A stretch of DNA of 62,313 nt, filler included, from Dugesia japonica (lineage: Eukaryota), in NCBI GenBank assembly GCA_001938525.1. It is 6 parts of 6 records of this genome, joined end to end, with 100 filler letters (N's around TTAATTAATTAA, not from the genome) between each part and the next. Parts side by side here need not be neighbours in the genome. Positions count along the whole stretch, not along the records: positions 52,628 to 62,313 come from MQRL01639632.1; 5 more parts are not named here. One strand, written 5' to 3'. Below are positions 2,431-62,313 of this stretch, piece by piece. The translations under genes were made by a program, and so were the position numbers. The notes under the pieces were generated by a model. It saw only the letters and a list, made by a program, of their open reading frames with translations. It did no database searches and had not been told where the DNA came from. Each line of letters begins with the position of its first letter. Within the stretch, counting starts at the first letter, position 1.

Positions 2431-3026
2431 AATTTTTTCAATACCTAAATCATTTATAAATTTTAACTGTTCAAATGTTTAATAAATTGTTGAAATTTAT
2501 TAGTAAATATAATTTTGTAATATAATATAATTTTAAAAATCTGATTATGAGAATAGACTAAGTCAGTTAATTTTTTTGGTATTTCGACTGAGTATTTTTA
2601 AACGTCAATAATTAAATAAATTTGTTGTCATTTTTGTTTTATTAAATTTTCAATAGATTACAATATTCTTTTAAGTTCATCGATGTGTGTCTCAAACTCA
2701 TTTAACACTGATAAATACACAATCTTTAGTTATATACAATTGATTTCATAATAATTCCAACTGTAATAATACATTCGATTCATTAAANNNNNNNNNCAAT
2801 ATTACTAGATAACTTCTGCTAACAAAGGACTATAGTCACTGTTAATAATAATTAAAATCTTAATCTTAGTGGAAAATTATCGTTATTAAAATATTTAATT
2901 GTTTTTCTGGAAACGTCACAAATATTAAATTAAATAATCACCCAAAGGTTATCAAGTTAAACTTCTCTATTTTTAATAATACTTTGAAAATTATTAAAAC
3001 AACTGAAGAAATTCATTGTATTTTAT

Positions 3027-3210
3027 AATTACAATTATTGTGAGAATAATTGTTGGACTTAACCATTGATCGGATTTGAGATTTCATTNNNNNNNNNNNN
3101 NNNNNNNNNNNNNNNNNNNNNNNNNNNNNNNNNNNNNNTTGAACTTTTTTTACAAATAAATTTTGTTTTGTTTTGATCGAAGCCTTATCTTATTTTAATG
3201 AAATTCATTT
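3027..3210 (-). repeat. Penelope pseudo-LTR tail with inverted arm (N gap in the middle)
   Basis: ATTGTGAGAATAATTGTTGGACTTAACCATTGATCG..TTTGAGATTTCATT, shared with 16912, 19262, 34868, 41562, 44390 and 51491. Confidence 0.7.
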
Positions 3211-9849: not shown

Positions 9850-9890
9850 ATATTCCTGAAGAAGAAAAGTGTGTCGAAAATTTTAATTTC
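9850..9890 (+). ncRNA. Degenerate minimal hammerhead ribozyme (family 1) in a Penelope pLTR remnant
   Basis: CTGAAGA at 9856-9862 and GTC-GAAA at 9873-9879, followed by the pLTR arm (tttgatcgagga...gaaatc); stems I-III damaged. Confidence 0.55.
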
Positions 9891-16209: not shown

Positions 16210-16974
16210 CTAAAAATAATAATAAAAAAANNNNNNNNNNNNNNNNNNNNNATTTCTACAGACGCAATAAAATTATCTATTTTTATTTATTTAAATAAAA
16301 TTTTCAAAAAATTAAAAAATTCAATTTAATCAATTGAAAATTTAACCATTTCATATATCAAATAAATATATGATAAACAACCACTTTATTCTAATTGGTT
16401 AATTTAAAAATTAATAATTAATTTAGTAATTAATCTTATATATCAATCAAATTACATAAAATATCTTGTTATAAATGAAATAATCGTTATAGATTTTAGA
16501 TCTCTGAGGATTTATATATAACGATAATATTCCTAATCTCCACTAACTGACTTGAACACTATCCACATACATCAAGTGTATAGAATCTCTACTGAATATT
16601 AATTGAAAATCAATTATAAACATTAATAATTTTTTTAAAAATGTTTTTAATTAATTTTAGTAGATTTAACTATTCAAATTGGTTACCAATTTGATTTAAT
16701 TTGTAAAAAACTGTATTTTACATTTATTAAAAATTTATCTAATAGTTTACTTTATAAATTATTTCATAGACGCTTTAAAATAAATATGAAAACTTTCATC
16801 GATTTTTGCATTGTTTTTTTTGAAATTAATGAATTGTTTCAAAAATATACCGAATATTGACAAATCAATAAGTAATCAATTAAAGTTATTTCAATAATTT
16901 AAATAATTTTATAATTACAAATATTGTGAGAATAATTGTTGGACTTAACCATTGATCGCATTTGAGATTTCATT

Positions 16975-17499: not shown

Positions 17500-18290
17500 C
17501 TCTCTGCCATCTCTGAAGAACGTCTCATTTTTTGATTAGAAGAAATCTTCTAATACCTTTTTGACACTACTCTTATCCTTGAAATGGAAGTCTGATGAAG
17601 CAATGTCAGGACTGTATGGTGGATGTGAAAGGAGTTCCAAGCTAAACTCCGTTATCTTATTGTGAGGGATTTTGGCCGCATGTTTGTGGAATTGTCTTCA
17701 TGTAGTATGATTTCTTTTCTATTTAGCAGTGCCGGTCGTTTCTTCGTCAATGCGTGTCTCAAACTATCTAATTGCTGGCAATATATTTCGGCAGTAACTG
17801 TTTGGCCCATATTTACCAATTCATAGTATATGACCTTATGTATGTCCGACCAAACACACAACGGTACTTTCTTTGGGTGCAAACCTAGTGTTTTCTCTGT
17901 GAATTATTTATTATTGAAGTTAACTGGTTAATACAATCTTAATGGCTTAAGTCAGTTCTTAGCTATAAAGAACTTGTGGAGGCTCGTGCGAGTCATTTGT
18001 TATAATATTCATAGCTGACTGGTTAGTGTAACCCTCAATACTTCGTTAATTTCAATGCTAGTGGAACTTGGTCGTTGCTTATCCATTAATTTTTCTTGTC
18101 CGAATTGACATAGAGAATCCATTTCTCATCTCCAGTTACCACACGATCTAAAAATGGACACGATTTCTGTCTGACCAATAATGAAGACGAGTTAGGAATT
18201 CTATGCAAAAAGTTTTATTGAGATAAATTTTACGGACTCTTGTGTGATATTTGCTAAGAATTGGCTTCAACTCACCATTAATTTCATTTG
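17500..18290 (-). mobile_element. mariner transposase relic
   Basis: HPKKVPLCVW, IILHEDN, SHPPYSPDIASSDFH; PFLDRVVTGDEKWI-like stretch near 18120-18160. Confidence 0.9.
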
Positions 18291-18720
18291 AGATTTCATT
18301 GAATTAAAAGCTTCGATCGAAATGTTGTTTTATTTGTTTAATTTTTGTTCGTAGTTATTCAAATTTTTGACAATTGTCATAGTCAGGAATTCACCATTTT
18401 TGATTGTGTTAACTAATATTATAACATTTTAAAAAACTGTTCATATTTTATTGAAAAGTTATTCGATGAATTTATTTAAGTTTATTTTAATAATTATAAT
18501 TATTATAAATTTCATTGCTTTTTGGTTTATTTTCTTTGATTGATATTTCTTTATGTTTCTTCTTTTGAAGTGTAGAAATGTTTCTTGTTCCCAATGTTTT
18601 CCATGTTATATGATGTTATTCTGATGAAATTTTATGTTTATATTGAAAAGGTTTGTAGACTTCACTTTCTTTCTGTTTCAGATATTCTTTAATTCTTGTT
18701 AAATTCTTTCTAATATTAGT
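18290..18720 (-). mobile_element. Penelope-like 3' end with pseudo-LTR
   Basis: 18560-18700 aligns with 32650-32780 of the GIY-YIG element, then a hammerhead and the pLTR arm GATCGAAGCTTTTAATTCAATGAAATCTCAAATG. Confidence 0.8.
18355..18393 (-). ncRNA. Degenerate minimal hammerhead (family 1)
   Basis: Minus strand: AUUC CUGACUA U GAC AAUU GUC AAAA AU UU GAAU; stems I and II intact, three core substitutions. Confidence 0.6.
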
Positions 18721-19206: not shown

Positions 19207-19904
19207 AAGGATTAACTTCGGTTAACTTCCAAAAAATAAGAAATAAAATAAAACAAAACAACATTTTAATCGAATCATTTAATTTAATGAAATCTCAAAT
19301 GCGATCAATAGTCAAGTCTAATAATTATTCTCGCAATAATTGTAATTGTAAAACACAATTAATGGTTGGCGCCATCAATTTTGGACTTTTTGATTTATTT
19401 AAAGCAATGAAAATTTACAAAATTAAAAATTAATTATTTATTTTAAAATTATTTTTTTATTAATTTTCATTAGTTTCAACTTATTATATTTTCAAATTCT
19501 TTTATATTTAAATGATATTTATATTACACATTGTCCAGTTTTAAATTTTTTAATTCTATTCTTAAACTTTTAAATTGTTTTTTTGAAAATGTTTAACTAT
19601 TTTGTAAATTAAATCATTTTAAATAATTTGCAATCTCAAAAAATTTCCCCATATTATTAATCATTTCTCACGAATTCGTTTAACGAAATTTATCANNNNN
19701 NNNNNNNNNNNNNNNNNNNNNNNNNNNNNNNNNNNNNNNNNNNNNNNNNNNNNNNNNNNNNAAGTGCTAAATGACATTCAAAGATTCAAAATCTTTATAA
19801 TATTAGGTCAAGGAGAAAATTTGGTTTTAATAAAATTTCATTTCGCATTAATGTTTTTATTGTTTTATACAAGTTGATAATTATTCAACAAATAACAATA
19901 CAAA

Positions 19905-32449: not shown

Positions 32450-33560
32450 CCTCAGTGNGTANCTATCAATCTACTATATTGCAAACTAGAGAAGTGCTCG
32501 ACAGGGCTGTTNTTATAGATGCTTTTTTTCAATATTGGCATTAATCCTATAATTAACGAAATTTCTAAAATACCTAATGCAGAAGTACGTTGTGGGACCA
32601 CTCGATTTCTTGTTTGCTTATGCTGATCACTTGGCATTAGTTGTTTTTTCCCATGAAGTGTGGAAATGTAGCCTGTCCCTAGTGCTTTCCATGTTATGTT
32701 ATGTTGTTCTGGTTAAATTTTATTTTTGCGTTGAAAGTGTTTGAAGACTTCACTTTATTTTTGTTTCAGATGTTCCTTAATTATTGTTCGGATGGTTCTG
32801 CATAGTTTCACCTATATATGTTTCTTTACAAATGGTGCATGTCATTTTATAAGTGATATTTTTCTTATTGAATATATTTCTATCATCATAAATGCATTTG
32901 TGACCACAAATTTTTTGTTGTGGTTTCTGTAATTGGATGACCAAAGATGCTTGCGTTTTGAATATAATTCTTGGATCGTGCTTGAGTTTAGAGACTTTTA
33001 TTATATTTTGCATGATTTGGTTACATTTGTCATTAATAAAAGGTAATTCAATAACTCTGTTTGTTTTTGGTTTGATTTTATTTTGTTTGGAATTTAAAGA
33101 TAAATATTTCGATATAACTTTATTTGGATATCCGTTATTTAAGAATCTATTTTTTATCAACCTGAGAGAAATCAATTTAATTTCTTATTTCAGCTTAAAT
33201 TCTTTCACCTTTAATTATACCAATTTGCTGGCTGGTGATAATATTGCTACTCCTAGGTAAAATATATGTACTGTGAAATATATAATTGGTTTCATATATA
33301 ATTGAATAGTTAATATTTCACCGGGTTTCTTTTGGATTAAAGTGCCCAAAAGGAAATCTGAAAGTTAATTTAATTTCTCTAAAGTGAGTTTAATCCTATC
33401 ATTTATACTATTGGTTAATTCTATAATGTTCTGTAAAGAAGAATTAGTTACAAAGGAAATATCGTCTATGTATCAAAGAATTATTTGATTTTCAATGAAG
33501 TTCACGAAATTTATCGCTAGAATTGGAGATAAATTATTGACCACCTTTTTGTTAAAAAAG
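32450..33560 (-). mobile_element. Penelope-like element, decayed RT thumb plus GIY-YIG
   Basis: YIDDISF-like RT motif at ~33455-33475; FLNNGYP; IELPFI; ITYKMTCTICKETYIGET. Confidence 0.92.
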
Positions 33561-34867
33561 CCGTTCACTGATGAAAATGCTATCTGAGAAGAGTCACGAA
33601 TTAATTAATTATTAAATTAGCAACAAAACGTAAAGCATCTCAACACTATCGTAAAGTGCTTCATCTTCTCATAATCCTCAAAACAAAGAACAAAATGTGA
33701 AAACGTTTTTTTTTTCATGTTTTCTTGTAACTTTTCTTTGAAACTTATTTTGAATTTTTGTTTTTTATAAATTATTTTTTAAAAAATTGTTTTGTTTTAA
33801 TTTTTTTCTTTGTGATTTTGTAATTTTATTTCATAAAATGTTAATTTTGTTTTCAAGTGTTATAAATTTATTTAATAATAACAAAACATTATTCTTAATT
33901 AAGACAGAATAAATTACATAATCGATTTAATAAGACTTATTCATAATTGGATCATGCTAATCAATAGTTGCTGGATATATATTATTTCATTACACAATAC
34001 ATATAAATATTTTAAGTAAACCATAATTACAACTAGTTTCACAAATAATTTCAATAAGATATTAACACTTTTATAGTAACTTCAACAACAACAATTTCAT
34101 ATAAATAAACATAACTTTCAAAAGAATATATAAATTTATTTAGAATTATAAGTTAAATATACACTAAGTTTTAAGAATAAAGTCTATTGCGAAGAAACTT
34201 GATTCATATTCAATTATTATAACCCATCTTATCCTGCAACCAATAATCCACATGATCGTTTTAGAATTTTAAATCTTTTCCGATTGTCCACTTGTCCGAT
34301 TGAAAATTTAACCACATAATATTGTTCATTTTTTCATTTCACATCCAATAATACTAAATCTTTCACCACAACATATATAAAAGTTTAAAAATTTTTAAAA
34401 TTATTTAATGAAAAAAATTTCAACTCAAAAAGTAAAAATTAAAACAAAATTTAAAAACTATTTTAAAAATAAACAAAATAGAAAAATATTAAAAAAAAAA
34501 TATGCAAAAATTAAAACTGAAATATTGTAAAATTTACAAACTTAAAAATTAAAAAATAAATATGTAAATAAAAAAAATTCTACTGAAATGAAACGACAAA
34601 TAGAATTCAAAATTCTACACATACATACATTGTGTAAAGAATTTGTTTTCCAAAATTGAGATTGATGGGTACAACGCTACTTTTGAAAAGATTTTATCCC
34701 GCCAGAGGCGGTGGTAGTTTAATGACCACTATTTACATACTAATGTAATCTATCTACATATTAAGTTAAAACTTACGAAGTAATGAATGATAAAGTAAGA
34801 TCATTTATTCCATGTGGACAGTAATCCATTATAATTATAATTCTTGGATTTATCAGCTTGAATTTAT

Positions 34868-35015
34868 TTCATTAAAATAAGAAAAAGCTTCGATCAAAAT
34901 AAAATTTATTACAAATAAATTTTATTTTGATCGGAGCTTTTTCTTATTTTAATGAAATCTCAAATGCGATCAATNGTTAAGTCCAACAATTATTCTCACA
35001 ATAATTGTAATTATT
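34868..35015 (+). repeat. Penelope pseudo-LTR tail with a near-perfect ~43-bp fold-back
   Basis: TTCATTAAAATAAGAAAAAGCTTCGATCAAAATAAAATTTATT inverted around a 3-4 nt loop, then the pLTR tail. Confidence 0.8.
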
Positions 35016-35189
35016 GAATTTATTTATTAATAAAAAACCATATCATATTTCTTTAAAATTTATATTTGTTATGTTATATTAGAATGTTCCAAAAGTTATG
35101 TTACATATGCAAAAAAATACAAAAACAGTATTTTATTGAAGTTAACAACAAATAACTACTATTCCAAGTATTGTTCATCATTACTCGTT

Positions 35190-40589: not shown

Positions 40590-42329
40590 TTATCGTTTCT
40601 TCATTGGTTTTGAAGCGACAATAATGGAGCTTTGAGGAGTATTCGATGCCGGTTTGCTAAGAATACTTGAAGTGTTTCTATTTCTACTGTATAAACTAGC
40701 TTTTGATATCGTATTTTCAGTGAGATCTGATTTGCTTGGATGGGTAACATAATTTTGTGAAAGCTAAATAAAAATATTTGATCAGTATAAAATTATTTGA
40801 TCGAAACTATTATTTTAATGAAATATCCCAAATTAATGGATCGATCCCTAATTATTGATAAGCTTATTAATATACTCATATCTAAATGCAGTGGCGCAGG
40901 GAGCATAATTGGCACCAGGCGCACAATACCTTTTTGAATCTCCCATTTACCGCCGGAAATCATTAATTAAGTTAAAAAATTTTTTTCGACGCCGAAAATC
41001 TTGTTTGCCTTGGGAACCATTTGATACCCCTTTGTGAATGACCCCCCGGACATGATAGACCCCCTTCGCTACGCCTCTGTCTAGATGAGGAACATTCAAA
41101 AGAAAATGATTTTACTAATTACAATAAACAAAAATGAAACACATTAATAAAATTAAAACTTTTGGTCAATAATAAAAAAAATTAGAAAAACGTAAGAAAA
41201 AGATTTTTGATCTTTACATTTTGAAAGTGAATAAATATTTTATAATTAGTTAAGTAAAAATTTAAAAAATAAAAAAAACTAAAACACTTTCTAAAACACA
41301 AACAAAAAATTTCGCAAAAACAACATTATATAACATGGAAAATATTAAGAACAGACTAATTTTCTCAACTTCACAGGAAGAAACATGAAGAAATATTAAT
41401 CAAAGAGAATAAACCTAAAATCAATGTGATTTATAATAATTAAATAAACTAAAAAAAATTATCTAATAAAATTTCAATAAAATTAAAAAGAAATTTTTCT
41501 AATTAGGCCTGAATTACTCAAAAAAAAATTCCGATCATTACCAAAAGAGAAATAAAAAAACAAAATTTTCATCGAAGCTTTTAATTTAATTTCAAACACG
41601 ATCAATGGCTGANTCCAACAATCATTCTCGTGATAATTGTAATTATTTAACTCTTTCAATTTATATAATACTGAAAATTCTTAGAATTAGCATAAATTAG
41701 ATTAATTGGAATTGGGTTACTATTTGATATCTGATGACTAAATAAATTAACGTACCGTTTCTGATGAATACTATTAACTATACAGAACAAAAGAATACAA
41801 ACTGATATTCAGATTTTAAAAAAATATACTTGAAAAACCGAATAGTTAATAAGGTTTTATCAATTCATAATTTATCAATATTATTTAATGATGAAAGAAA
41901 ACAAATCCCTGAAAACAATTGTCGAAAATTCGAATTACTAATAACAAAACAAAAATTATTTTGATTTAAGCTTTCTAATTTCTAGAAACTTTAAAAATCC
42001 GATCTATGCGAAAGTTCGACAATTATACTCGCAATAATTGTAAATTTTAACTTATTTATTCAATTGTAATTTTTGTTTATTTTTAAAATATAATCATGTG
42101 AATAAAATTACAGCTGCTTCAGGCATCATATAAGTGCTTTTAGGTCGGTTTTTACGTTTTCGTAAATGGCACCAATATAGAACGATTATGGATACAAGAA
42201 GAATATTAAATAAGCCAATAAATATTCCAAAAACTGTGGATATAGATGCGTACAGATTATTTCTAAAAATAAAATTAATTTTACCTAATCATTTAATTAA
42301 AGAAATACCTGACAATTTTGATGTTGGAT
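40590..42329 (-). CDS. 3' exons of an unidentified single-pass membrane protein
   Basis: Exon 42112-42262 (NNLYASISTVFGIFIGLFNILLVSIIVLYWCHLRKRKNRPKSTYMMPEAA: TM helix plus basic stop-transfer) ends in a phase-0 GT. It joins the phase-0 terminal exon 40590-40763 (LSQNYVTHPS...SKPMKKR*). Possible 21-nt micro-exon at 42309-42329. Confidence 0.75.
40889..41079. mobile_element. hAT-type MITE in the last intron of the membrane-protein gene
   Basis: Ends CAGTGGCGCAG...CTACGCCTCTG; 8-bp TSD TCTAAATG / TCTAGATG. Confidence 0.8.
41300..41645 (+). mobile_element. Penelope-like 3' end with pLTR tail
   Basis: Similar to the reverse complement of 18480-18620, then the pLTR arm and tail. Confidence 0.7.
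41903..41936 (+). ncRNA. Degenerate minimal hammerhead (family 1) at the head of a pLTR (to ~42045)
   Basis: AAUCC CUGA(AA) ACAAUUGUC GAAA AU UC GAAUU; part of the 5' core is deleted. Confidence 0.55.
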
Positions 42330-43929: not shown

Positions 43930-45009
43930 GATTGGTAATTTTTATAAATTGTCCATGGGCCACTGGTGGTCAAGGAACCTTTGGTGGTTAAAAGAAGAAC
44001 TACTTTGTGCACTAAACTTGCCAATCAGAACAACTAGCTCTGAGATATTAAAAGCGCTCAATTTTACTAAATTTTTCACTATTAAATCAACATAAGATTT
44101 CTCAGATTTTGTCATAAATAAGAATTAACGAATAATTACAANNNNNNNNNNNNNNNNNNNNNNNNNNNNNNNNNNNNNNNNNNNNNNNNNNNNNNNNNNN
44201 NNNNNNNNNNNNNNNNNNNNNNNNNNNNNNNNNNNNNNNNNNNNNNNNNNNNNNNNNNNNNNNNNNNNNNNNNNNNNNNNNNNNNNNNNNNNNNNNNNNN
44301 NNNNNNNNNNNNNNNNNNNNNNNNNNNNNNNNNNNNNNNNNNNNNNAAAATTGGAATTGCAATAAAAATACATTTTATTTCTTTCTCTTAATTTTAATGA
44401 AATAATCTCAAACGCGACCAATGGTTGATTGTCCAACAAATATTCTCACAATAATTCTTTTTGTAATTATAAAAATGTTTATCATTGGAAAATTTTTATC
44501 AGTGATCCGTTGGATTAAAAATTATTGTATTAGTGGTCCGTGAAGTCCCAAAGGTTGGCGGCCACTGCCTTGGAGCTCCAAAGATTTGAATAAAATANCT
44601 ACAGAGAAATTGTATATTGTGTATCAACTAATGGTAAAATGGTTCCCTATCTTTGCCTTAGGTCATAAATTTCCTTAACTGTGAACATTTAGTAATTTCC
44701 ATAAAGAAATAGATTTTTTTTTACCGGGATTTGATGCAAGTTTGGATATTAACATGTGTGGCGATTTTATGCGAGAGAATGAAGAATGTATTGTTGAGAA
44801 AGATAATTCGATCTCTTCTCCAACAGAGGTTATTATCGATGAATCAGGTTTATCTGAACGCGAAGAAATTTACAGCTGTGATGAAGAAAAGGTTATGATT
44901 TATCTTGAGAAGTTGGAAATCTTTTTTCTGAATAATTTCCCGAGTAAAGTAATGAACATTCAAAAGTTCAAGAGTGAAATAATCAATAGAAGAAACAGAC
45001 GTTATATTT

Positions 45010-50929: not shown

Positions 50930-52420
50930 TATAATGTTTTTTTACAATTCATTAATAAAATCTGGAATCTTTCTAAACTACCTTTCGATTTGGCCGTTCA
51001 CACTATGATTATACGGTTTTCATAAAAAAAGTTTAGTGTCCTGATTTTTCAAAATTTCTCTTATAACTCAAGGATCAAAGGCTTTTTCACAGTCTAGTTT
51101 CATCTCTCTTAGGCATTTAAATTTTTGTATCAACTTCTCAAAATTAGTTTTCTTATAAATTCCTTTTCTGTTTTCGTTAATGTTATATGAATTAAGTATT
51201 TACTGAACTTGTCTATAAAACCAGAAGTATACCTTTATTGCAAACTTGTTTCTAATACCGGCTCATGTAGACATTTAAATACAATTTCAAATTGGTTCTT
51301 AGCTTCTTATCCTATTTTCTTCTCTTTAATCACTGTTATAGATACTTTTGACTTCTGAAAACCTTCATAGCTACAGACAATATCTAGTATGAGGCTCCTC
51401 AAATTCATCGCCATGTATTTATCTCTCATATATGTGTACACTTTTTCACTTTTGTGGAACACATTAATGTATGTATTTCTTGTATTGTGATTTTATTAAT
51501 TTAAAAGCTTCGATCGAAATTTTTTTGTAGACAAAGTCGAAAATTCAAAATACTATCAAGAACAAAAATAAGGAAATTTTGATCAAAGCCTTTAATTTAA
51601 TGAAATCTCAAATACAATCAATGGTTAAGTCCGATGATTGTACTTGTAAAATTAATGTATTATTTCTGGTATTTTTTCATCTTGATTGTTTTATTTTTTT
51701 TGATTGATCCTATTTCTTTACAAATGTTTAATCGCCCCTCTTTTTCTTTTCGATAGTGTTCAATACTTTTATTTCAATCTTTCCTTTTTTGGCAGTTTCA
51801 TGAGATATATGATATTGCGCACACATTATAAATCTTGGTCTAGATAATATATTTGCATTTCCATATTAAATTATTCTCTATTCTAAAACCATGTATAATC
51901 TACTGAGATGATTAATACTTATCAAAAATTGGGACGTTATCACAATTTTCTTCGTCATCATTTTGAAAGTAAGAGCTTCATGATATGTTCTCAAAATTAA
52001 TTTTCTACCATGCAAGTAATACAAACAGAAATAATAAACAACTAATAACTCCTTTCGTGTAATACATTATTCTTTTTACCAGACATCATCAAATTGGATT
52101 GATTGGTAACCACTGTTTCTTTTCCTTCTTTATATCTCTGTGACAATACTGCTTCAATTGTATCAAAACTGNCAATATCTAATTCAATTTTTTTGTTTAT
52201 GTATGGAAACCATCATAGTGGCGCAGTCATTAGAGCTTCTTCCAGATCCTCAAATTATGTCGTTTATTTCAGTTGACCATTCTAACTTCCTGTTGCTTCT
52301 TACACTGTACAACTATTCTGATATCTTCGATTTTCCTGAGCACCATCTTTGCTAATTATGTGTCACAGAACTCTAACTTTTCTTAGAGGAAACTGACACT
52401 TTCTTGGGTTAATTCAATAC
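50930..52420 (-). mobile_element. Scrambled Ty3/gypsy pol fragments interrupted by a pLTR hairpin (51491-51650)
   Basis: INPRKCQF at ~52390-52412; YRRKRNSGYQS in the RNase H region; several decayed frames. Confidence 0.55.
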
Positions 52421-52627: not shown

Positions 52628-52644
52628 TTTTTTATATTTTTCAG

Positions 52645-53049
52645 TTTTATCAACATTTATCCTTGATTTGTTATTAGTTCGAGATGTTCTATTTGTAAAC
52701 CCAGCTTTTATATTTTTTATAGTTTTAATTTTTGTGTGGATTATTTTTCTTTGTGTAACATTAACTATTCAACCGGAAAATCCAACTAAAATCTCATTTA
52801 AAGTACCCGGTGTTCCATGGTTGCCGGCGATAAGTATGTTAATAAATATATACTTAATGATGAAACTGCCAATTGATACTTGGTATCGGTTTTGCATTTG
52901 GATGGTAATAGGTAAAATAGTTTGTTTTCTTTATTTGTATTTTTACTTTATCATAATTAGGATTTTTAATATATTTCTTCTATGGAATATGTCACAGTGA
53001 AGAACGAAAGAAGAGGTCTAAGTTAGTTGATTTTGTTTATTTGAATTAA
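52645..53049 (+). CDS. Cationic amino acid transporter (SLC7 CAT family), last two exons
   Basis: Exons 52645-52911 and 52961-53049 with a 49-nt GT-AG intron; QPENPTKISFKVPGVPWLPAISMLINIYLMMKLPIDTWYRFCIWMVIG|FLIYFFYGICHSEE is the CAT C-terminal signature. Confidence 0.93.
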
Positions 53050-53785
53050 TCAAAAACGATTTCACTTTATAGTAGTAAAACCAAATTGTTATTTAATAAC
53101 AAATAAGTAAGAAGTAATATTTCCTTTCCGATATGGTCTTCTTGATTAAATTTGATTGTAATTTTATAAATATTTAAAGTAATAATAACTTATAATTCCG
53201 GTTTTGGTATTTCATTTATATTTTTAATTAATATTTGTTGGTGCTATTTTATTTATATATAATATTATTCAATTGGTTCAACGATTATCTAATAATTTAA
53301 GAAGAANNNNNNNNCAATAGAGAAGGAGAAGAGGGAAAACAAAGTAGAAGAAGATGAAAAGGAAGAAGAAAAAAAATTGCACAAAAAGATGGAATATTTA
53401 AAAGAAAAAAAATCTTTAGCAAAAAACAATTTAAAAGTAAAGGTATAATTAATCATCTAAAATATTACACATCAATAGAACATAATGTTATAAAAGAATG
53501 TTGTTGCAAAACAAATCATTGAAGAAATGACCCTATTATCCAATAAAAACGATTGTAAAAGTGAAACAAAGATTATAAAGCAATTTTACAAAACAATCAT
53601 TATAACTGAAAATTAGTAAACTCAATTGAAACAAATATATAAGGAAACACCAGAGACTAGAAATAAAGAAATCGACGATTAAATAAAGAAATTAGAAACT
53701 TATAATAAAAATTTAACAGTTGAATAATGGTAAATAAAATAAATAAATAAAATTGAGTGAAGCAAATAGAAAATAGGAATAGGAA

Positions 53786-53957
53786 AATCAAAATTTTTAT
53801 TTTTTTTAATTGATATTTGATTACAATTCGATATTTTGACTTTGTCTTCAGGAATTGACTTTTGATTGACATGGAATTATAAAAGTCAATTTCTGAAGAA
53901 GACAGTCGAAATATCGAATTGTAATCAAATATCAATAAAAAAACAAAAATTTTGATT
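53786..53957. repeat. Inverted duplication of a Penelope pLTR head; each arm contains a hammerhead
   Basis: Arms of ~77 bp (53786-53863 and 53881-53957). Confidence 0.85.
53887..53921 (+). ncRNA. Minimal type-I hammerhead ribozyme (family 1) with an intact catalytic core
   Basis: CAAUUU CUGAAGA A GAC A GUC GAAA UA UC|GAAUUG: 6-bp stem I, palindromic AUAU stem III, AUC cleavage triplet; loop II shortened to 1 nt. Confidence 0.75.
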
Positions 53958-54169
53958 GAAGCTTTTATTTTAAATAATTTAAATTTGTCTAATTATTTGA
54001 TTGATTTTACGAGGATCAGATTAATTTATTCATTGCAATTAATTCATTGTATTGATTATAATTCATGTAACTTAGTTATGAAAATAATTAACAGGTGTAA
54101 TCTATTAGGTTGGAACAAACGTTCTTTAAGTGAGTTTTTTAAGTGAAAGTAAAAAAAACAAAAAAAAAC

Positions 54170-54812
54170 CAATATACATAATATTTTGTCAAATATGCAT
54201 CATTTTGTTGGATTACTTATCGTCATCTGTAATGAAGCTTCATGAATTCATCCACCAATTTTATTTTCCTTTTGGTCATAAATTAATACAAGTCGTATTT
54301 GCAGGCCTGTGAGGTGTTGAAACTTTTCTCACTTAGAGAATTCTGCAGAGATCTAATTAAATGTACATTGGAAGGCGTTAAATCTGGTGCATATGGTAGG
54401 GGGCTTATTTATTTCCAACACAACTCAGCACTTTTCTATTGAGTCATCAAAGACACTCAAAGTCTGGCATTATCCTGGTGGAAAAGAATATCCTTTATAT
54501 TAGCAAATATAGATCACTCTACAACGATGATAGCTTTTAATGGATCCAATTATCAGCAGTATTTCAAGGAATTCTAAGTCTGGTCTTGTGAAAGAAGTTC
54601 ATAATATATTATCTTTATGATTTATTAAATTATGATTGGAAGGACTCCAATCTAATCAAATACGGAGTATTTCTTTCTTGGAATGTAAGCCAAATTTTGA
54701 AGTAGTATTTAGAGGCATATTTATTTTTTGTTAAGACCTATCACGTTTGGGATTAGTAAATACAATCCATTTTTCATCACCAGTAATTCTCCTTTTCAAA
54801 AACGGATTATTC
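54170..54812 (-). mobile_element. mariner transposase relic
   Basis: NPFLKRRITGDEKWI; FHQDNARL; PYAPDLTPS. Confidence 0.9.
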
Positions 54813-55024
54813 NNNNNNNNNNNNNNNNNNNNNNNNNNNNNNNNNNNNNNNNNNNNNNNNNNNNNNNNNNNNNNNNNNNNNNNNNNNNNNNNNNNNNNNN
54901 NNNNNNNNNNNNNNNNNNNNNNNNNNNNNNNNNNNNNNNNNNNNNNNNNNNNNNNNNNNNNNNNNNNNNNNNNNNNNNNNNNNNNNNNNNNNNNNNNNNN
55001 NNNNNNNNNNNNNNNNNNNNNNNN

Positions 55025-55663
55025 TCTTGTTTCTTCCATTTTTTTGATGATCATGTAATTTCAAAATTGAAAATTAATATCAACAATTTTAAATGATGTA
55101 AAACAAGCTCTTTGAGAAAATATATGTCAACTATTCATACCACAATATAATTTCATTTAGATGTTCAAACACAATATTGAAAAAACTAAACGAACTTATG
55201 TTTAAAACTAATAATTCTATTTCTGATTCATCATNNNNNNNNNNNNNNNNNNNNNNNNNNNNNNNNNNNNNNNNNNNNNNNNNNTGGAATCCAAATATAG
55301 TAACGGTTGATGTATTCAAGTCTTTTCAAATGACTTTCAACACTCATGTGAGATATTTAAATGAATCACTCTGTAATAAACAGAGTAAATATTCCTTTTC
55401 ATCTGCGAATCATTTTTTATTTTTTTGAAACATCAAGTGTCTGGAATGCATCTTGTTTCTTCCATTTTTTTGATGATCATGTAATTTCAAAATTGAAAAT
55501 TAATATCAACAATTTTAAATGATGCAGTAAAACAAGCTTTTTCAGAAAATATATGTCAACTATTCATACCACAATATAATTTCATTTAGATGTTCAAACA
55601 CAATATTGAAAAAACTCAACGAACTTATGTTTAAAACTAATAATTATATTTCTGATTCATCAT
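55025..55663. repeat. ~210-bp near-identical direct duplication (55025-55234 / 55451-55663) beside N gaps
   Basis: Direct sequence comparison; probably a gap-filling or haplotype artefact. Confidence 0.85.
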
Positions 55664-55849
55664 AATTTCACTGTAATTACTATGGTGGTTTTCTTTTCTT
55701 TTGGTGGTTCTATTTTTAGAATATAATTGAGATTATTTTTATTATTATATCGATTACAGATAAATTATGATTTCCCTTCAATTATGAGCTTTATCAATAG
55801 TATTATTCATCAGCACTACCTGGTATGTAGACTCTCCTGTCCAATTCAT

Positions 55850-56730
55850 ACCATACGAGAACCATTTAATAAATTAATAAATCTACTTGAAGATGTTTAA
55901 AGAATGGAAAACTGTGAGAGTCAGGTCCAGTGAGTATGGTGNNNNNNNNNNNNNNNNNNNNNNNNNNNNNNNNNNNNNNNNNNNNNNNNNNNNNNNNNNN
56001 NNNNNNNNNNNNNNNNNNNNNNNNNNNNNNNNNNNNNNNNNNNNNNNNNNNNNNNNNNNNNNNNNNNNNNNNNNNNNNNNNNNNNNNNNTTCTCCAATTC
56101 CTCGCAGTACGATGTTGCAGCGATTTTTTTTTAAAGTCGGGTGTATGAAAAGTAAATAACTTCTGCAGTTGAGTACCATACTGTAAGCATAGACTTGTTT
56201 AGATGGAGTTTCATTTTTAAGAACTATTTAGGAGACTCATCAACTTATAACCACGGTACAGAACGTTTGAGTTTATTATAAATAATACATTTTTCATCAC
56301 AAGTTATCAAGAAAGGATTAGTGGAATATCTTCTGAGAGAGATGTTGCTATCTCTATTCTCCTTTTCATGTGAATTTCCGTAAGATTATGTGGCACCTAT
56401 TTTTCTAGTTTCTTAACTTTGTTGATTAGCTTCAGATGTTCGAAGGTAATTGAATGCGAAACATGTATTTCTGCTACTATCTCGGACACACTTTGGGTAC
56501 TCTTGAAATATTTGTTTTAAAACATCATCAACAGCAGAAGGTTTCCCGGTTCTTGCTTTATCTTTAAGAAACTCATTTCCACTTCAAAATTTCTGAAACC
56601 AACTTTGCATGATACATTGAGCTGAAGTACAATTTCTCCATGCTTTGTTTACATTTTCAGTTGTTTCTGTTGTATTGTGACTTAGTTTTAATTAGCGAAG
56701 TATTATGGTACGAAAAAAAATTCTGTTCAT
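55850..56730 (-). mobile_element. mariner element, near-full decayed transposase
   Basis: MNRIFFRTII..SWFQKF..KDKARTGKP; VPHNL; NPFLDNL..DEK; PYSLDLT. Confidence 0.88.
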
Positions 56731-59204
56731 GGCAACTAGTTCGTCCATTAATAACTAAAAAGTAATATAATTTCCATGAAAAACCTTTGTAATATATAGA
56801 AAATATGGCTGCTTATTATATTAGCATAAAAAATCTATTGGAAATAAATATTCTTTATCAATATTCTTGAAATTTTGGACTGTTGAAAATTCCACAATTA
56901 CTTTTCTAATAATCTAATATAAACATGTGTAAATTAACATTTTTTAAAAAAAATTTCTTAAGCTTGACCCTTTTATACTTTAGTAAGGACTTTCATATTT
57001 GATCTTCAATGATAGATGAAACAAGTATAGGAAACGATTAAAAGCCAACACTTGGTCACCACCGAGCTTCAGAAATAAGTTAGGAAACTGGATCAAAACA
57101 CCCACAATACAGTGAAAGCGCTGCAGTCTCCTCACACTCGAAAACTCCTATAGCTCCATATAGTCATCAAACAATTAAATGAGATGCTAGGGAGACACTC
57201 AGGTTAACACTTGAACCTTGAAGTTATAAGAGGTGTGGGGTTCCCAACCATAGTTTAAAAGCTCTGATTTAAACAAATATACTTCTTTAAAAAAAATTTA
57301 AAATAACTAACAAAACTTTTTTTAAATTTCAATTTGTTGCTAGTTTTTTAAACTTTAACAACTTTCAGCATTTCTCATATTCACAATTTTCAGAAATTTT
57401 AAAAAGATTTCCCACATTCCTTTCAACCTGCTTTCCATTTTTGCTTAATAAAATATATCCTATGACATGAATTTAATTACTCTACAAATATATCTTCTCC
57501 ACTTCGAATTTCCTCATTGTTTCTTCTGCCGGCTTCTCTTTTATCTATTTCTTCGAAAACATACAATCTTTGTGCTAACAAATTTATCTGCAGAACATTG
57601 TTATTTTGATTGATTTTTGTGAATTCTAATTTTGAATTTTTTCTGCTTAATCTTTTCCGTAAAGTAGTATCTACCAATTCTCAAATTGTCTTTCTATTGA
57701 TGCGATATATTTTTGAAATTTGAAGTATTACCAAAGTGAGAAATCATGAGCTGGAACCAAACCAAAAAAATTATTTTGAAAATCAGGCCAAGAACACCGA
57801 ATACAAACTATTGTGCATTTACTAAGATTGATTAAAATACCCTTTGATGATTCCACTAAAATAGAAACCCAAAAATTAGTTTTTTAAAGTATTTTTCCAA
57901 CTGCCAGTAGATATTTCATTTTAATGCAATTATTATAATTTCGTATTGTAATTTAATTATTTATGACAAAGTCCTTATTGGAAAATTATGAAAATACGGC
58001 ACATGATAAAAAAAATTAATTAATCCTAGTTATCTTTAATTTTTAAAGTATATTTCAAGAAATCTTTAATAAATTCGTTAAACAAAATGTATTCAAAGTA
58101 TTAATATAACAATCCTATCGCAATACAATTACACATAATAAAACATTTTCATGAAACCTAAATTTTATTTTTCATCAGCCATCTTCATTTGATAATTAAT
58201 TTTCTTTGTTGATAACAAATTAATTTTTTCCTAAGTTTTGTTTTTTTCGTTTGCGCACACATGATTAGTTATTATGTTTACAAACACTGTTAATTTTAAT
58301 ATTTTATCTTGAAACAAATATTTTCCCGAAATACATTTATTTCATTAAACGATAAGGTCATTACAATTCATTAACACTGAAATTTATTTCATATTGATAT
58401 AAAAATAGTTTAAGTAAATTGTCTAGTCAACACAATTTTGCAACATAAGTAGAACGTTCAAACAAAAATATTTATGCATAAATTAACATTGAAAGTAAAA
58501 CTTATATGTTTAGGGATAAAAATAATAATTTTCAAAAAGCATTGTATTTATATCTTCAGTTATAATAACTAGAGCGGAAATTTTTATGTACATGGGTTTT
58601 TTTAATGTCACTTTAAATATAATTAACCGGAAACAGATCGGTAGTATTTACTAAAAATCTAGCATAGTAAATTGAAAGATATTTTACTGAAGGTTTTTAT
58701 TTTAAATATAAAGTATTCAAACAAAGGATGTTTATTAATTATTTATTAATACTTCTAAGTTATTACTTACGATAAAATAGCCTTTCTCCCACTAGCCGAA
58801 TTTAGAACAAAGTCAATGACAAAATATACTTAAAATGAAAACATTCACATTAATGGGGCTACAATCATTTTTTTCTAAACTTACAATTATAGTAATTATG
58901 AAACTCATTATTTACAAAATTCATAAAAAATCATTGCTTGATTTATTTACTTTTAGAACGAACTATACCGATGATGATATATTAGCAATGAAACCAACAG
59001 ACTGATGGAAATATTCTCAAGCTTATTTCAAAATCGACATTTTGTGGAAACATCAATTTGAAATAAAATTTTTGCATTAGACATATTTATTTAAACTAAT
59101 AAAACTTTCTCACTAAAGTCAACGTACAAAAACATTAATATACAGATTTCTTTGAAATCAACATTCATTCACAATGGAAAATGCAGTAAATGTTAACATA
59201 CAGT

Positions 59205-60033
59205 TTACTCATCATCTTCACAACCGTCTTCGGGTTCTTCATCTAAGTCTTCGTCATCCGCACCCTCATCATCATCGTCGTCTTCAACAGCTAGATAATA
59301 TTGGAGAGGATTTGGCCATAAGTCATCTTTAATGACTTCCCCTAATTCAACCATTGAATTAGCGATATCAGATGTAAACCATTGCATGAAACTTATCGGT
59401 GAACCAGATCCTCCTTTGCTGCCAGCCGCGGCTTTATTCAATGATTCATTTAATGACTTGACAAAGTTTTTTCCTTCTTTCCAATCTACTGGATCACAAG
59501 TAGTTTTGATTTCGGATTCACCAACATGAATTGACTTTGTTATTGTTGTATTGTTAAAGTATTCATTTGGAGAAAAAGTCTTCACATTAAACCAATAAAA
59601 TAAACTATTATAGAAAAAATTACCATTATTATTTTGAATCCTGATTTGATATCATCAAACTCTTCTACATCTAGACTTGTCAATGATTGTAACAGGTCTT
59701 CATCATGTTCCGTGATTAATGTCATCAGTTGGGGATGATTACTCAAAGCATTGATCCAAAAATTTGGTATAGTTTTGATTAAGTTAGCTCTTTGTTGAAA
59801 TAATGGTTGTCGTTTTTGATTAAACTTCTTTTCTACTTCCAAAATTTCTTCACTTGCTTGTTCATTTAATTTATCAATATCACTTTGTACTTCATCGATT
59901 TTCTCAATTAAAGAATTCAATACTTGATCTACAATTTATAAGTTTAATATAAAATAACAAATCATAACTAAATTTCACCTTGGTCAACTTTTCCATTGCT
60001 ATCTGTTTTCTGTATTTTAGGTGCAGACGCCAT
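59205..60033 (-). CDS. SET: SET / TAF-Ibeta (NAP-family histone chaperone, I2PP2A), complete, 244 aa
   Basis: Exons 59979-60033, 59624-59928, 59205-59579; introns of 50 and 44 nt. Motifs [53 protein letters not shown] and an acidic tail; the spliced frame is continuous. Confidence 0.97.
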
Positions 60034-62313
60034 GCTTTCTCTTTCTTTATGCGGTAATAAATAGTTATTAATTAAAACATTAAAACAAATGAATATTAAC
60101 AATGAGACAAAATTTAATTATCATGCATATTTAATTTATCAAAATATTAAAATTAATAAAATTTCTATTTAAAATTTATTATTTTGATTATTTATAAAAT
60201 TATGAAGTGGGTTTATAATGAATTTAGTATTTTGAAAATTAACTTCAAATTCCAATTTTTTGTTACCTAGTAGTAGTTTTTATTGTATTTAATTGTAAAT
60301 TATTTATTTGCAAAATTACTTGTTCATATAAAGTCTTTCATATTTCAAAATCTTATTTATTATTTATTTATATCATATAATAATTTGACCAATGTCATAA
60401 TGATTTTTGCATTAATGGTACATAGATTACTTACTGTGTTTTGAATAAAGAAAATAATGTCATGCAAAATAAACTAAAAATGGAATTGTTTCTTTATTAA
60501 TTTGATTGACTTAAAAAAATAATATTTTCGTATAAATTAACTGATAATCTAAATTTGTTTAATCTACTCTTATTTTATTATTATACACTTATTTTTCATT
60601 TAATATAATCATTTCAGTCATTTTTGATAAACTAAATTTCATAAAAAGCGTTCATTAATTATATTAGGAATTTAAAAGTCGAAATGTATTCATTATGTAA
60701 GGTATTATTATAACATAATGAATGTGTATATTTTGATAGAATGAATATAAGTGTTGAGTAGTGTGCGTTATAATTTTTATTGCGCTGATTGTTGTTGTGT
60801 GTTTACCAGGGTTTGAATAATAATAACATTACTCTTTACGTAATCGGTATTAAGACTTGAAACAAAAAATCAAAATTATATTAATTTATTCCAAAACACA
60901 ATTGTTTAGTCTAATTTTTTTATATAAAAACATGTTTGCATAATATAACTGAATACTTTTTTCAATTATTGGATAATTATAAGATACTGAATAAAATTTA
61001 TTAAAACCAAACTTTAGATAAACATTCATATTATCTGATCTTATTTAAGGAATTTGTCATAATATTTTAAAAAAAAACTGTACTTTTGTCGTGTAAAACA
61101 TTTAAATTGCCAAGGAAAAAATAACAAAATTAACTTTTCATGGTGAATTCAAATAAATTAAAGTTAGTACTTTTTTCTCAACACGAAATACCATAAGATG
61201 AGCAAATTTAAAATCAGATGGATCCTCAGTGGATTGCTCAAAAGCCAAGGAACTGCCAAAGGTTTGCCATGTACATGGTGTACACTTCACTTTACAAATT
61301 AAACACAACAATGAAGTGTTTATTAAATTTGTAAAATAGTTTAATCTATTCGTGACTATTTTATCTTGAAACTTCTCTTCTATAACTGGATATTCTCCCT
61401 GAAAACAAAGTTTCTTCTAACTCTTATAAAACCATTCTTTGATATAGTTCTATGCTGGTGGTAAACAATGGCAGTTGATCCGTCTCTGATTGTTCCGTGT
61501 GGTTATTAAGGGATCTTTTTTTATGAAACAATCTTATCATTAGTTGTTTGTAACTCCCAGGTTAATTGACGTATTTTTTCTTTCAGAGTCCATATCTGTT
61601 TTTTTGAAGAGAGAAATTGGCATAAGTTTTTCTTACTTTTAGTGAAGCTACGATATTTCTGTTCTATTAAAATTATAGAGTATCCATCAAAATTAAAAAT
61701 ACGTTGTGAACAAAAGTTGTTAACAACAAAGTTGAACAAGTTTCTTTGTAATTTCAAAAGGTTTCTAACACTTTAAGATCAGTTTTTGGGGATTATTTTA
61801 CCACTTCAAACAAAAATAAATGTGCGATCAATTAATTCCACTTCAAAAGCTCTAATTCTAACCTCTGAACTTTCAAAGCTATTACTTTGGTGTTTTAATT
61901 AAATTTAAAACCATATACAATAATCGATCTACAAAGTATAGAGATGTGCATGAGATCATTTAAGTGCATCAAAATGGGCTATATGTGGTTAAAATTATAA
62001 CAGCAATAAAATATGTCAGTACTATTTTACAAGGAAAACAAATTACAATTGATCTTGAAATAAATAATATTTCTAATTTAATCGTGAATCTAAAAGATAT
62101 TAGAAATAAATGGTAATCTCTTTTGAAATATCCAAAAATATATCTGAAAGCATGGAGATTTAACATATATTCTTAGGAAAAACTAAAACAGAAAGAAAGA
62201 TGAATAAAAATATGATTCATCAATTAACGATATATTTTAACTGTGAAGAACAACTTAAGTACCAAACTTTTTATAAATTTGTTGATATCATAAAAGGTAA
62301 TATGACAACAAGA

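Follow-up and report, generated by a model that had tools for sequence, protein, structure and literature searches.

A decayed, ribozyme-bearing Penelope-like end repeat doubled head to head in the Dugesia japonica genome, probably by a single insertion

The locus described here raises the question of whether an inverted pair of hammerhead ribozymes lying behind a transporter gene serves its host as a source of regulatory RNA, or is what a retrotransposon leaves when it inserts. The window (the whole stretch of DNA analysed, 62,313 nucleotides of Dugesia japonica, filler included) carries the pair in the part spanning 52628-62313, which is contig G000:C639632; there, positions 53786-53957 form one hairpin with 76 base pairs at -82.8 kcal/mol (z -16.2), equalled in stability by none of 200 shuffles. 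The original prediction had read it as two minimal hammerheads in an inverted pseudo-LTR (pLTR) of Penelope type, and as a candidate source of small RNAs. Our analysis gives a probability of about 0.8 that an abundant Penelope-like retrotransposon left the hairpin as a decayed copy of its ribozyme-bearing end repeat, doubled head to head, likely in one insertion during which each nicked target strand primed a short cDNA and the two cDNAs were then joined. The features of the locus are collected in Table 1.

Table 1. Features at and around the hairpin (positions along the window; strand "." where none applies).
Feature	Position	Strand	Remarks
Amino-acid permease gene, last two exons	52653..53049	+	AA_permease_C; intron read from sequence; stop TAA 53047-53049
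Piece of unrelated repeat, neighbour of left arm	53715..53788	+	continues at other loci, broken off here
Left arm, pLTR copy	53787..53863	-	ends ~80 nt from its head; outer part absent
Broken hammerhead in left arm	53824..53857	-	3-nt loss at bulge/stem II start; A at G12 (CpG position)
Junction between arms, 17 nt	53864..53880	.	unmatched in other copies examined
Right arm, tail-less pLTR copy	53881..53975	+	begins 12 nt upstream of hammerhead core, stops at the short 3' end of the family
Minimal type I hammerhead, right arm	53887..53921	+	core complete; loop II 1 nt; innermost stem I pair U-G
Stem I 5' strand CAATTT, right arm	53887-92	+	sequence
CTGAAGA, right arm	53893-99	+	sequence
Bulged A, right arm	53900	+	sequence
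GAC-A-GTC (stem/loop II), right arm	53901-07	+	sequence
GAAA, then TAT, right arm	GAAA 53908-11	+	sequence
C17, right arm; predicted cut after 53915	53915	+	sequence
GAATTG, right arm	53916-21	+	sequence
AATAAA within A-rich tract of pLTR	53934..53939	+	sequence

The inverted repeat was found where it had been placed, at 53786-53957, but the element itself does not end at 53957: reads of other copies diverge from the window only after 53975, which marks its right end, and the same flank follows that end in a contig of a different sample. The left arm lacks the outer portion, in which the tail sits in most head-to-head pairs, and is cut at 53787, where the unrelated repeat breaks off; because that repeat continues elsewhere, a later deletion probably took both the tail and the left target duplication of this copy. 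No upstream sequence matching the right flank with fewer than two mismatches was found, and this copy shows no tail, its right arm being of the tail-less kind and its left end being lost. Given that neither tail nor target duplication is present, we infer the single-event origin of the window's copy from its family. Between the arms, two 6-mers of the 17-nt junction repeat the neighbouring head of the left arm.

Every base of the hammerhead core (CUGANGA / GAAA / UH) is present in the right arm, where C17 falls at 53915 as originally read. The left arm is incomplete; its 3-nt loop II is kept and G12 is lost (it reads A), both of which had been described, and three nucleotides are missing as well. 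Of the stems predicted for the right arm, the 6-bp stem I, with its innermost U-G pair, and the palindromic stem III can be read in the sequence, but a loop II of one base is too short to close a 3-bp stem II. That loop and the U-G pair explain why the hammerhead is not the best fold of this arm (-0.1 against -3.2 kcal/mol for the lowest-energy fold); in the intact arm of another locus (L025) the hammerhead is the lowest-energy fold. A generic core pattern gives 4 matches in the window against 1.2 expected, weak evidence alone, and a scan of Rfam at E values up to 10 matched no hammerhead family, so that the case for a ribozyme rests on the family. MiRNA-like Rfam matches, with scores far below the gathering cut-offs, were set aside as hairpin artefacts. 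Positions 9850-9890 contain another hammerhead-like core, which differs in having a longer stem II; it is unmatched by the family arm and possibly belongs to another Penelope family.

The right arm and the family motif agree with the hammerheads of metazoan Penelope-like elements (PLEs) in the available text of Cervera and De la Pena (2014, PMC4209133): a type I core, an extra base at 9/10.1, the pair G10.1-C11.1, a palindromic 15.2/16.2, no loop III, and a position in the pLTR. That text describes minimal hammerheads with an extra base, a palindromic helix III and low activity even as dimers, and pairs of them on opposite strands 100-700 bp apart; unlike these, the Dugesia motif has a stem I of 6 bp, its two cores lie about 40 nt apart, and its stem II counts 3 bp against the 7-8 bp of the Schistosoma families. 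A promoter in the pLTR and cleavage by hammerhead dimers are both covered in the accessible part of a review (PMC6765202).

The consensus obtained by merging the two lesioned arms occurs intact elsewhere in the genome, its central 25 nt having 263 exact matches against 0 for the reversed control, and the ribozyme motif with N7 and loop II left free has 3,021 exact occurrences, again against 0 reversed. A DNA search of the genome returned 2,685 first-look candidates, 40 of which were scored, and at least 369 exact cores stand head to head, 2-32 nt apart (reversed control 0). In copies that are not inverted, the sequence continues upstream as a reading frame with a GIY-YIG domain at its end, and at two loci (L104 and L112) RT motifs, GIY-YIG and the hammerhead follow one another in that order. 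Pfam matches at L104 fall below the gathering cut-off for both RVT_1 (E 3.5e-4) and GIY-YIG (E 2.6e-4), a third piece being without match; the ORF piece of this locus is 75% identical to an 843-aa protein (P0001) annotated with RVT_1 and PF26215, whose layout is shared by three further homologues, and the homologues carry RVT_1, GIY-YIG and PF26215. The pLTR stands after the ORF end in the non-inverted copies and before the ORF start at L120, L212, L216 and L219; L120 runs continuously from ribozyme through tail to ORF, and the peptide encoded by its tail matches the N-terminus of P0001. By this physical linkage to an ORF with RT and GIY-YIG domains, the repeat is the pLTR of an endonuclease-bearing (EN+) PLE, and the Penelope identity first proposed for it holds. 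Cysteines are present within the RT-endonuclease linker, and a Cys-rich linker of this kind may point, as read from the sequence, to the Neptune or Nematis type, which the available texts of PMC3846280 and PMC8557442 define by that feature.

Other parts of the window contain further pieces of the same family. An older head-to-head remnant with a collapsed centre lies at 51496-51632, and more pieces were seen at 32642-33605 (minus strand), 18274-18700, 19242-19423, 34855-35022, 41250-42054, 3021-3088, 16904-16974 and 44385-44456; they include about 1 kb of RT/endonuclease ORF (identity 79%) as well as several tails that assembly gaps interrupt.

The head-to-head pairs have a regular anatomy. 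Fifty-two were found, and dropping one near-identical contig left 51, the duplicate L002/L026 being retained; samples were chosen by BLAST similarity or by exact motifs, and because a few loci such as this one are duplicated, the counts are slightly inflated. A short-end arm is joined to a tailed arm in 38 of the 51, the others being two short arms (3), pairs with a truncated arm (3, the window's copy included) and pairs cut by contig ends (7). The two fixed 3' ends lie about 60 nt apart, and the outer tail codes for the first residues of the ORF. Exact direct repeats of 11-16 nt beside both ends were found in 12 of the 27 pairs with readable flanks, compared with 0.9% of mismatched flank pairs; the target duplications measure about 12 bp, and several more pairs have a near match by eye. 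The centres are of 44 different kinds among the 51 pairs, and only a few recur among the 50 listed from exact head-to-head cores, namely short A/T ones and one longer centre shared by two contigs. Fragments of the neighbouring arm occur within many centres, and also within the window's 17-nt junction; junction pieces copied in this way may be read as polymerase theta-type end joining. Several insertion ends (L004, L042, L044, L079) adjoin (TAA)n microsatellites.

A second set, of 69 exact-motif arms, was made up of 29 new loci and 40 more that were picked by flank length among 100 listed places of the 263 total matches, and about five pairs of its loci are duplicates of each other. Of these arms 34 have a detected inverted partner, the rest being solo or linked to the ORF. 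Among the 63 arms with at least 60 nt upstream, 54 reach no further than 20 nt upstream of the core and in most cases stop at 8-13 nt, and the usual 5' boundary of the family lies 8-15 nt upstream of the ribozyme core.

This pattern is of a known kind, inverted pLTRs, tails, duplications and opposite-strand hammerheads having all been published already. In the portions available of PMC3846280 and PMC8557442, insertions of EN+ PLEs carry an inverted 5'-truncated pLTR, a tail on one side only that encodes the start of the ORF, and duplications of 8-10 bp. The Dugesia pairs are like Pen2a of Adineta (PMC3846280; scheme in PMC8557442) in having an inverted beside a direct pLTR, a tail at one end that codes for the first residues of the ORF, and a short duplication; unlike Pen2a, the insert here is often just two pLTR ends (about 270 nt) and such pairs run into the hundreds, with a tail of about 60 nt against 30-40 in Pen2a-type insertions and duplications of about 12 bp against 8-10.

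The sequence differences between copies tell where the two arms come from. Variants common to both arms of a pair number 88, against 23 +/- 7 by permutation (maximum 48 in 2,000), and the type of loop II agrees between arms in 23 of 29 pairs (permutation mean 7.8, maximum 18): both arms of a pair derive from one source element. Later gene conversion is an unlikely cause of the mirrored variants, because 284 differences are still confined to a single arm and mirroring is rare at the CpG positions, where change is most frequent. For N7 and loop II, 31 of 116 cells show mirrored changes in 29 pairs that had been chosen independently of the positions concerned; for the core the figure is 1 of 202 (Fisher p 3e-14, the cells not being independent). 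A variable N7 and loop II around a constant core is the known tolerance pattern of hammerheads, and it shows that the ribozyme was under selection in the source elements and not at the window's locus. The conservation that had been looked for across genomic copies is thus found in the core, which is nearly free of mirrored variants; the stem covariation expected alongside it is not, as the stems hardly vary and at most one two-sided change occurs among the mirrored variants. Both arms at L011:1030-1232 have A in place of G12 in the core; apparently a template with a dead ribozyme could still be inserted, as would be expected if insertion does not need cleavage. The same 2-nt loss in loop II is seen at unrelated loci (L001, L002/L026 and L012; C61662 and C65984 in G000), and in one arm only wherever both arms are visible; repeated slippage at the small hairpin may be its cause, and the BLAST sample is biased towards this loss.

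In the proposed insertion, a staggered double nick at the target would give rise to the target duplication, and one cDNA would start at each of the two 3' ends on the element's RNA. The template would be an uncleaved RNA that begins just upstream of the ribozyme; both cDNAs would reach its 5' end and would then be end-joined head to head with short inserted pieces. On this reading the ribozyme at the window's locus is a passenger, decaying since insertion. The weakest step is the RNA start as the 5' boundary. Five of 30 ORF-start copies reach the ribozyme, three of them stopping at -7 to -21, one meeting a gap and one running on upstream, and none of the remaining copies ends at the cleavage site. 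Among 29 mapped ORF-start copies, several of which are cut by gaps or contig ends, 5' ends do not accumulate at that predicted site. The steps have parallels in the anole element PAc, a Poseidon of Anolis (Frangieh et al. 2024, PMC11167929), for which the available text reports that both target strands are nicked and extended in vitro, that the RT begins copying at two sites, one at each boundary of the tail, that targets are AT-rich and that uncleaved RNA is the main template. PAc belongs to the Penelope/Poseidon clade and has its ORF start inside the ribozyme, whereas the Dugesia family has a Cys-rich linker between RT and endonuclease and an ORF starting near the short end. As far as the available text of that study goes, Penelope integration steps after priming are still unproven and head-to-head inserts are not derived from its two start sites; no description of twin priming for PLEs was found in titles and abstract openings, a coverage that mostly excludes subscription journals. 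We lean modestly towards a more specific reading, in which these stump palindromes record how Penelope integrates in vivo: an enzyme acting as a dimer would make a staggered cut of about 12 nt, one cDNA per start site would be copied from the same uncleaved RNA as far as its 5' end, some 12 nt upstream of the ribozyme, and the two arms would report the source transcript twice.

The mirrored variants fit any copying from one source, and so would also suit a single event in the same family in which fold-back or a template switch made the mirror arm out of the first cDNA, or in which the 5' boundary was set by stalling of the RT or by an endonuclease cut at an AT-rich site upstream of the ribozyme. 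For such rival versions speak an ATT motif just upstream of the 5' boundary, the preference of the anole enzyme for ATT near the ORF-pLTR junction in the accessible text of PMC11167929, and the 9 of 63 arms that extend more than 20 nt upstream. Fold-back, however, cannot yield the pair at L112, where the tail is on the inverted arm and the arm with 2 kb of ORF has none; each arm has sequence missing from the other, which points to two templating events. Nor does it explain the one fixed stop site of the tail-less arm, and this family of explanations is improbable overall. That the palindrome is instead a MITE-like or retrozyme-like unit amplifying as a whole is far less credible still. Hundreds of palindromes of similar size with target duplications, and the few recurring centres, are what such a unit would show, and the Dugesia inserts are like non-LTR retrozymes (bioRxiv 10.64898/2026.07.22.740005) in being short, ORF-less, hammerhead-bearing and related to pLTRs; but nearly all centres differ (44 of 51), the 18-nt centre that recurs (L002/L026) does so with the same flank and is therefore a duplicated locus, and the ends are asymmetric. 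The head-to-tail tandems that define non-LTR retrozymes in the part available of that preprint also contrast with the head-to-head arms and variable junctions seen here.

A role for the host was the remaining proposal, namely that read-through from the transporter would give a hairpin RNA sequestering both ribozymes and yielding regulatory small RNAs. Part of this is borne out: the inversion does put one ribozyme on each strand, the arms would pair in any transcript that runs through the locus, and the spacing of about 0.7 kb holds, the permease stop codon lying 737 nt upstream of a very stable hairpin. PLE copies give small RNAs in other animals according to the available text of PMC3846280, and silencing RNAs made from such hairpins at the level of the family are plausible. 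The RNA data consist of three raw runs under the same species label (X22, X23 and X24), of which 6-26% each was read, and one contig set. Gene-strand reads of X24, at a depth of 1-5, stop by 53138 and leave 53139-53795 without any, X22 and X23 barely cover the permease gene, and the reads on the hairpin mostly continue into other sequence (73-96% of all reads aligned) and so come from other copies. No RNA read joins the transporter 3' end to the hairpin in these three poly(A)/cDNA runs of low depth, in which small RNAs are unsampled; at that depth, and with runs partly read, this is weak evidence against read-through. The inversion is, moreover, a routine insertion product with hundreds of examples in the genome, and both arms are decaying, so that a small-RNA source tied to the transporter is not supported and the read-through idea has very little left to recommend it. 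No sign of host use of the hairpin was found. Around the locus, an ORF-like stretch at 53316-53700 has no strong relative in the genome, a short frame at 54731-54812 on the minus strand reads NNPFLKRRITGDEKWIVFTNPKR, which we take to resemble a mariner-type transposase motif, and a near-identical direct repeat (55025-55234 and 55451-55663) flanks assembly gaps and may be an assembly overlap.

Taken together, the window's locus itself is an ordinary decayed transposon scar, and such value as there is lies in the family to which it belongs. If double priming is the true origin of the pairs, the inverted pLTR, the one-sided tail and the target duplication would be explained in one step, and cleavage by the ribozyme would serve something other than the making of template. 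The double-priming model is testable in this genome through its many natural insertion products, whose ends are fixed and which carry duplications and mirrored source markers, and the variation within the family amounts to a mutational scan, natural and clean, of a minimal hammerhead.
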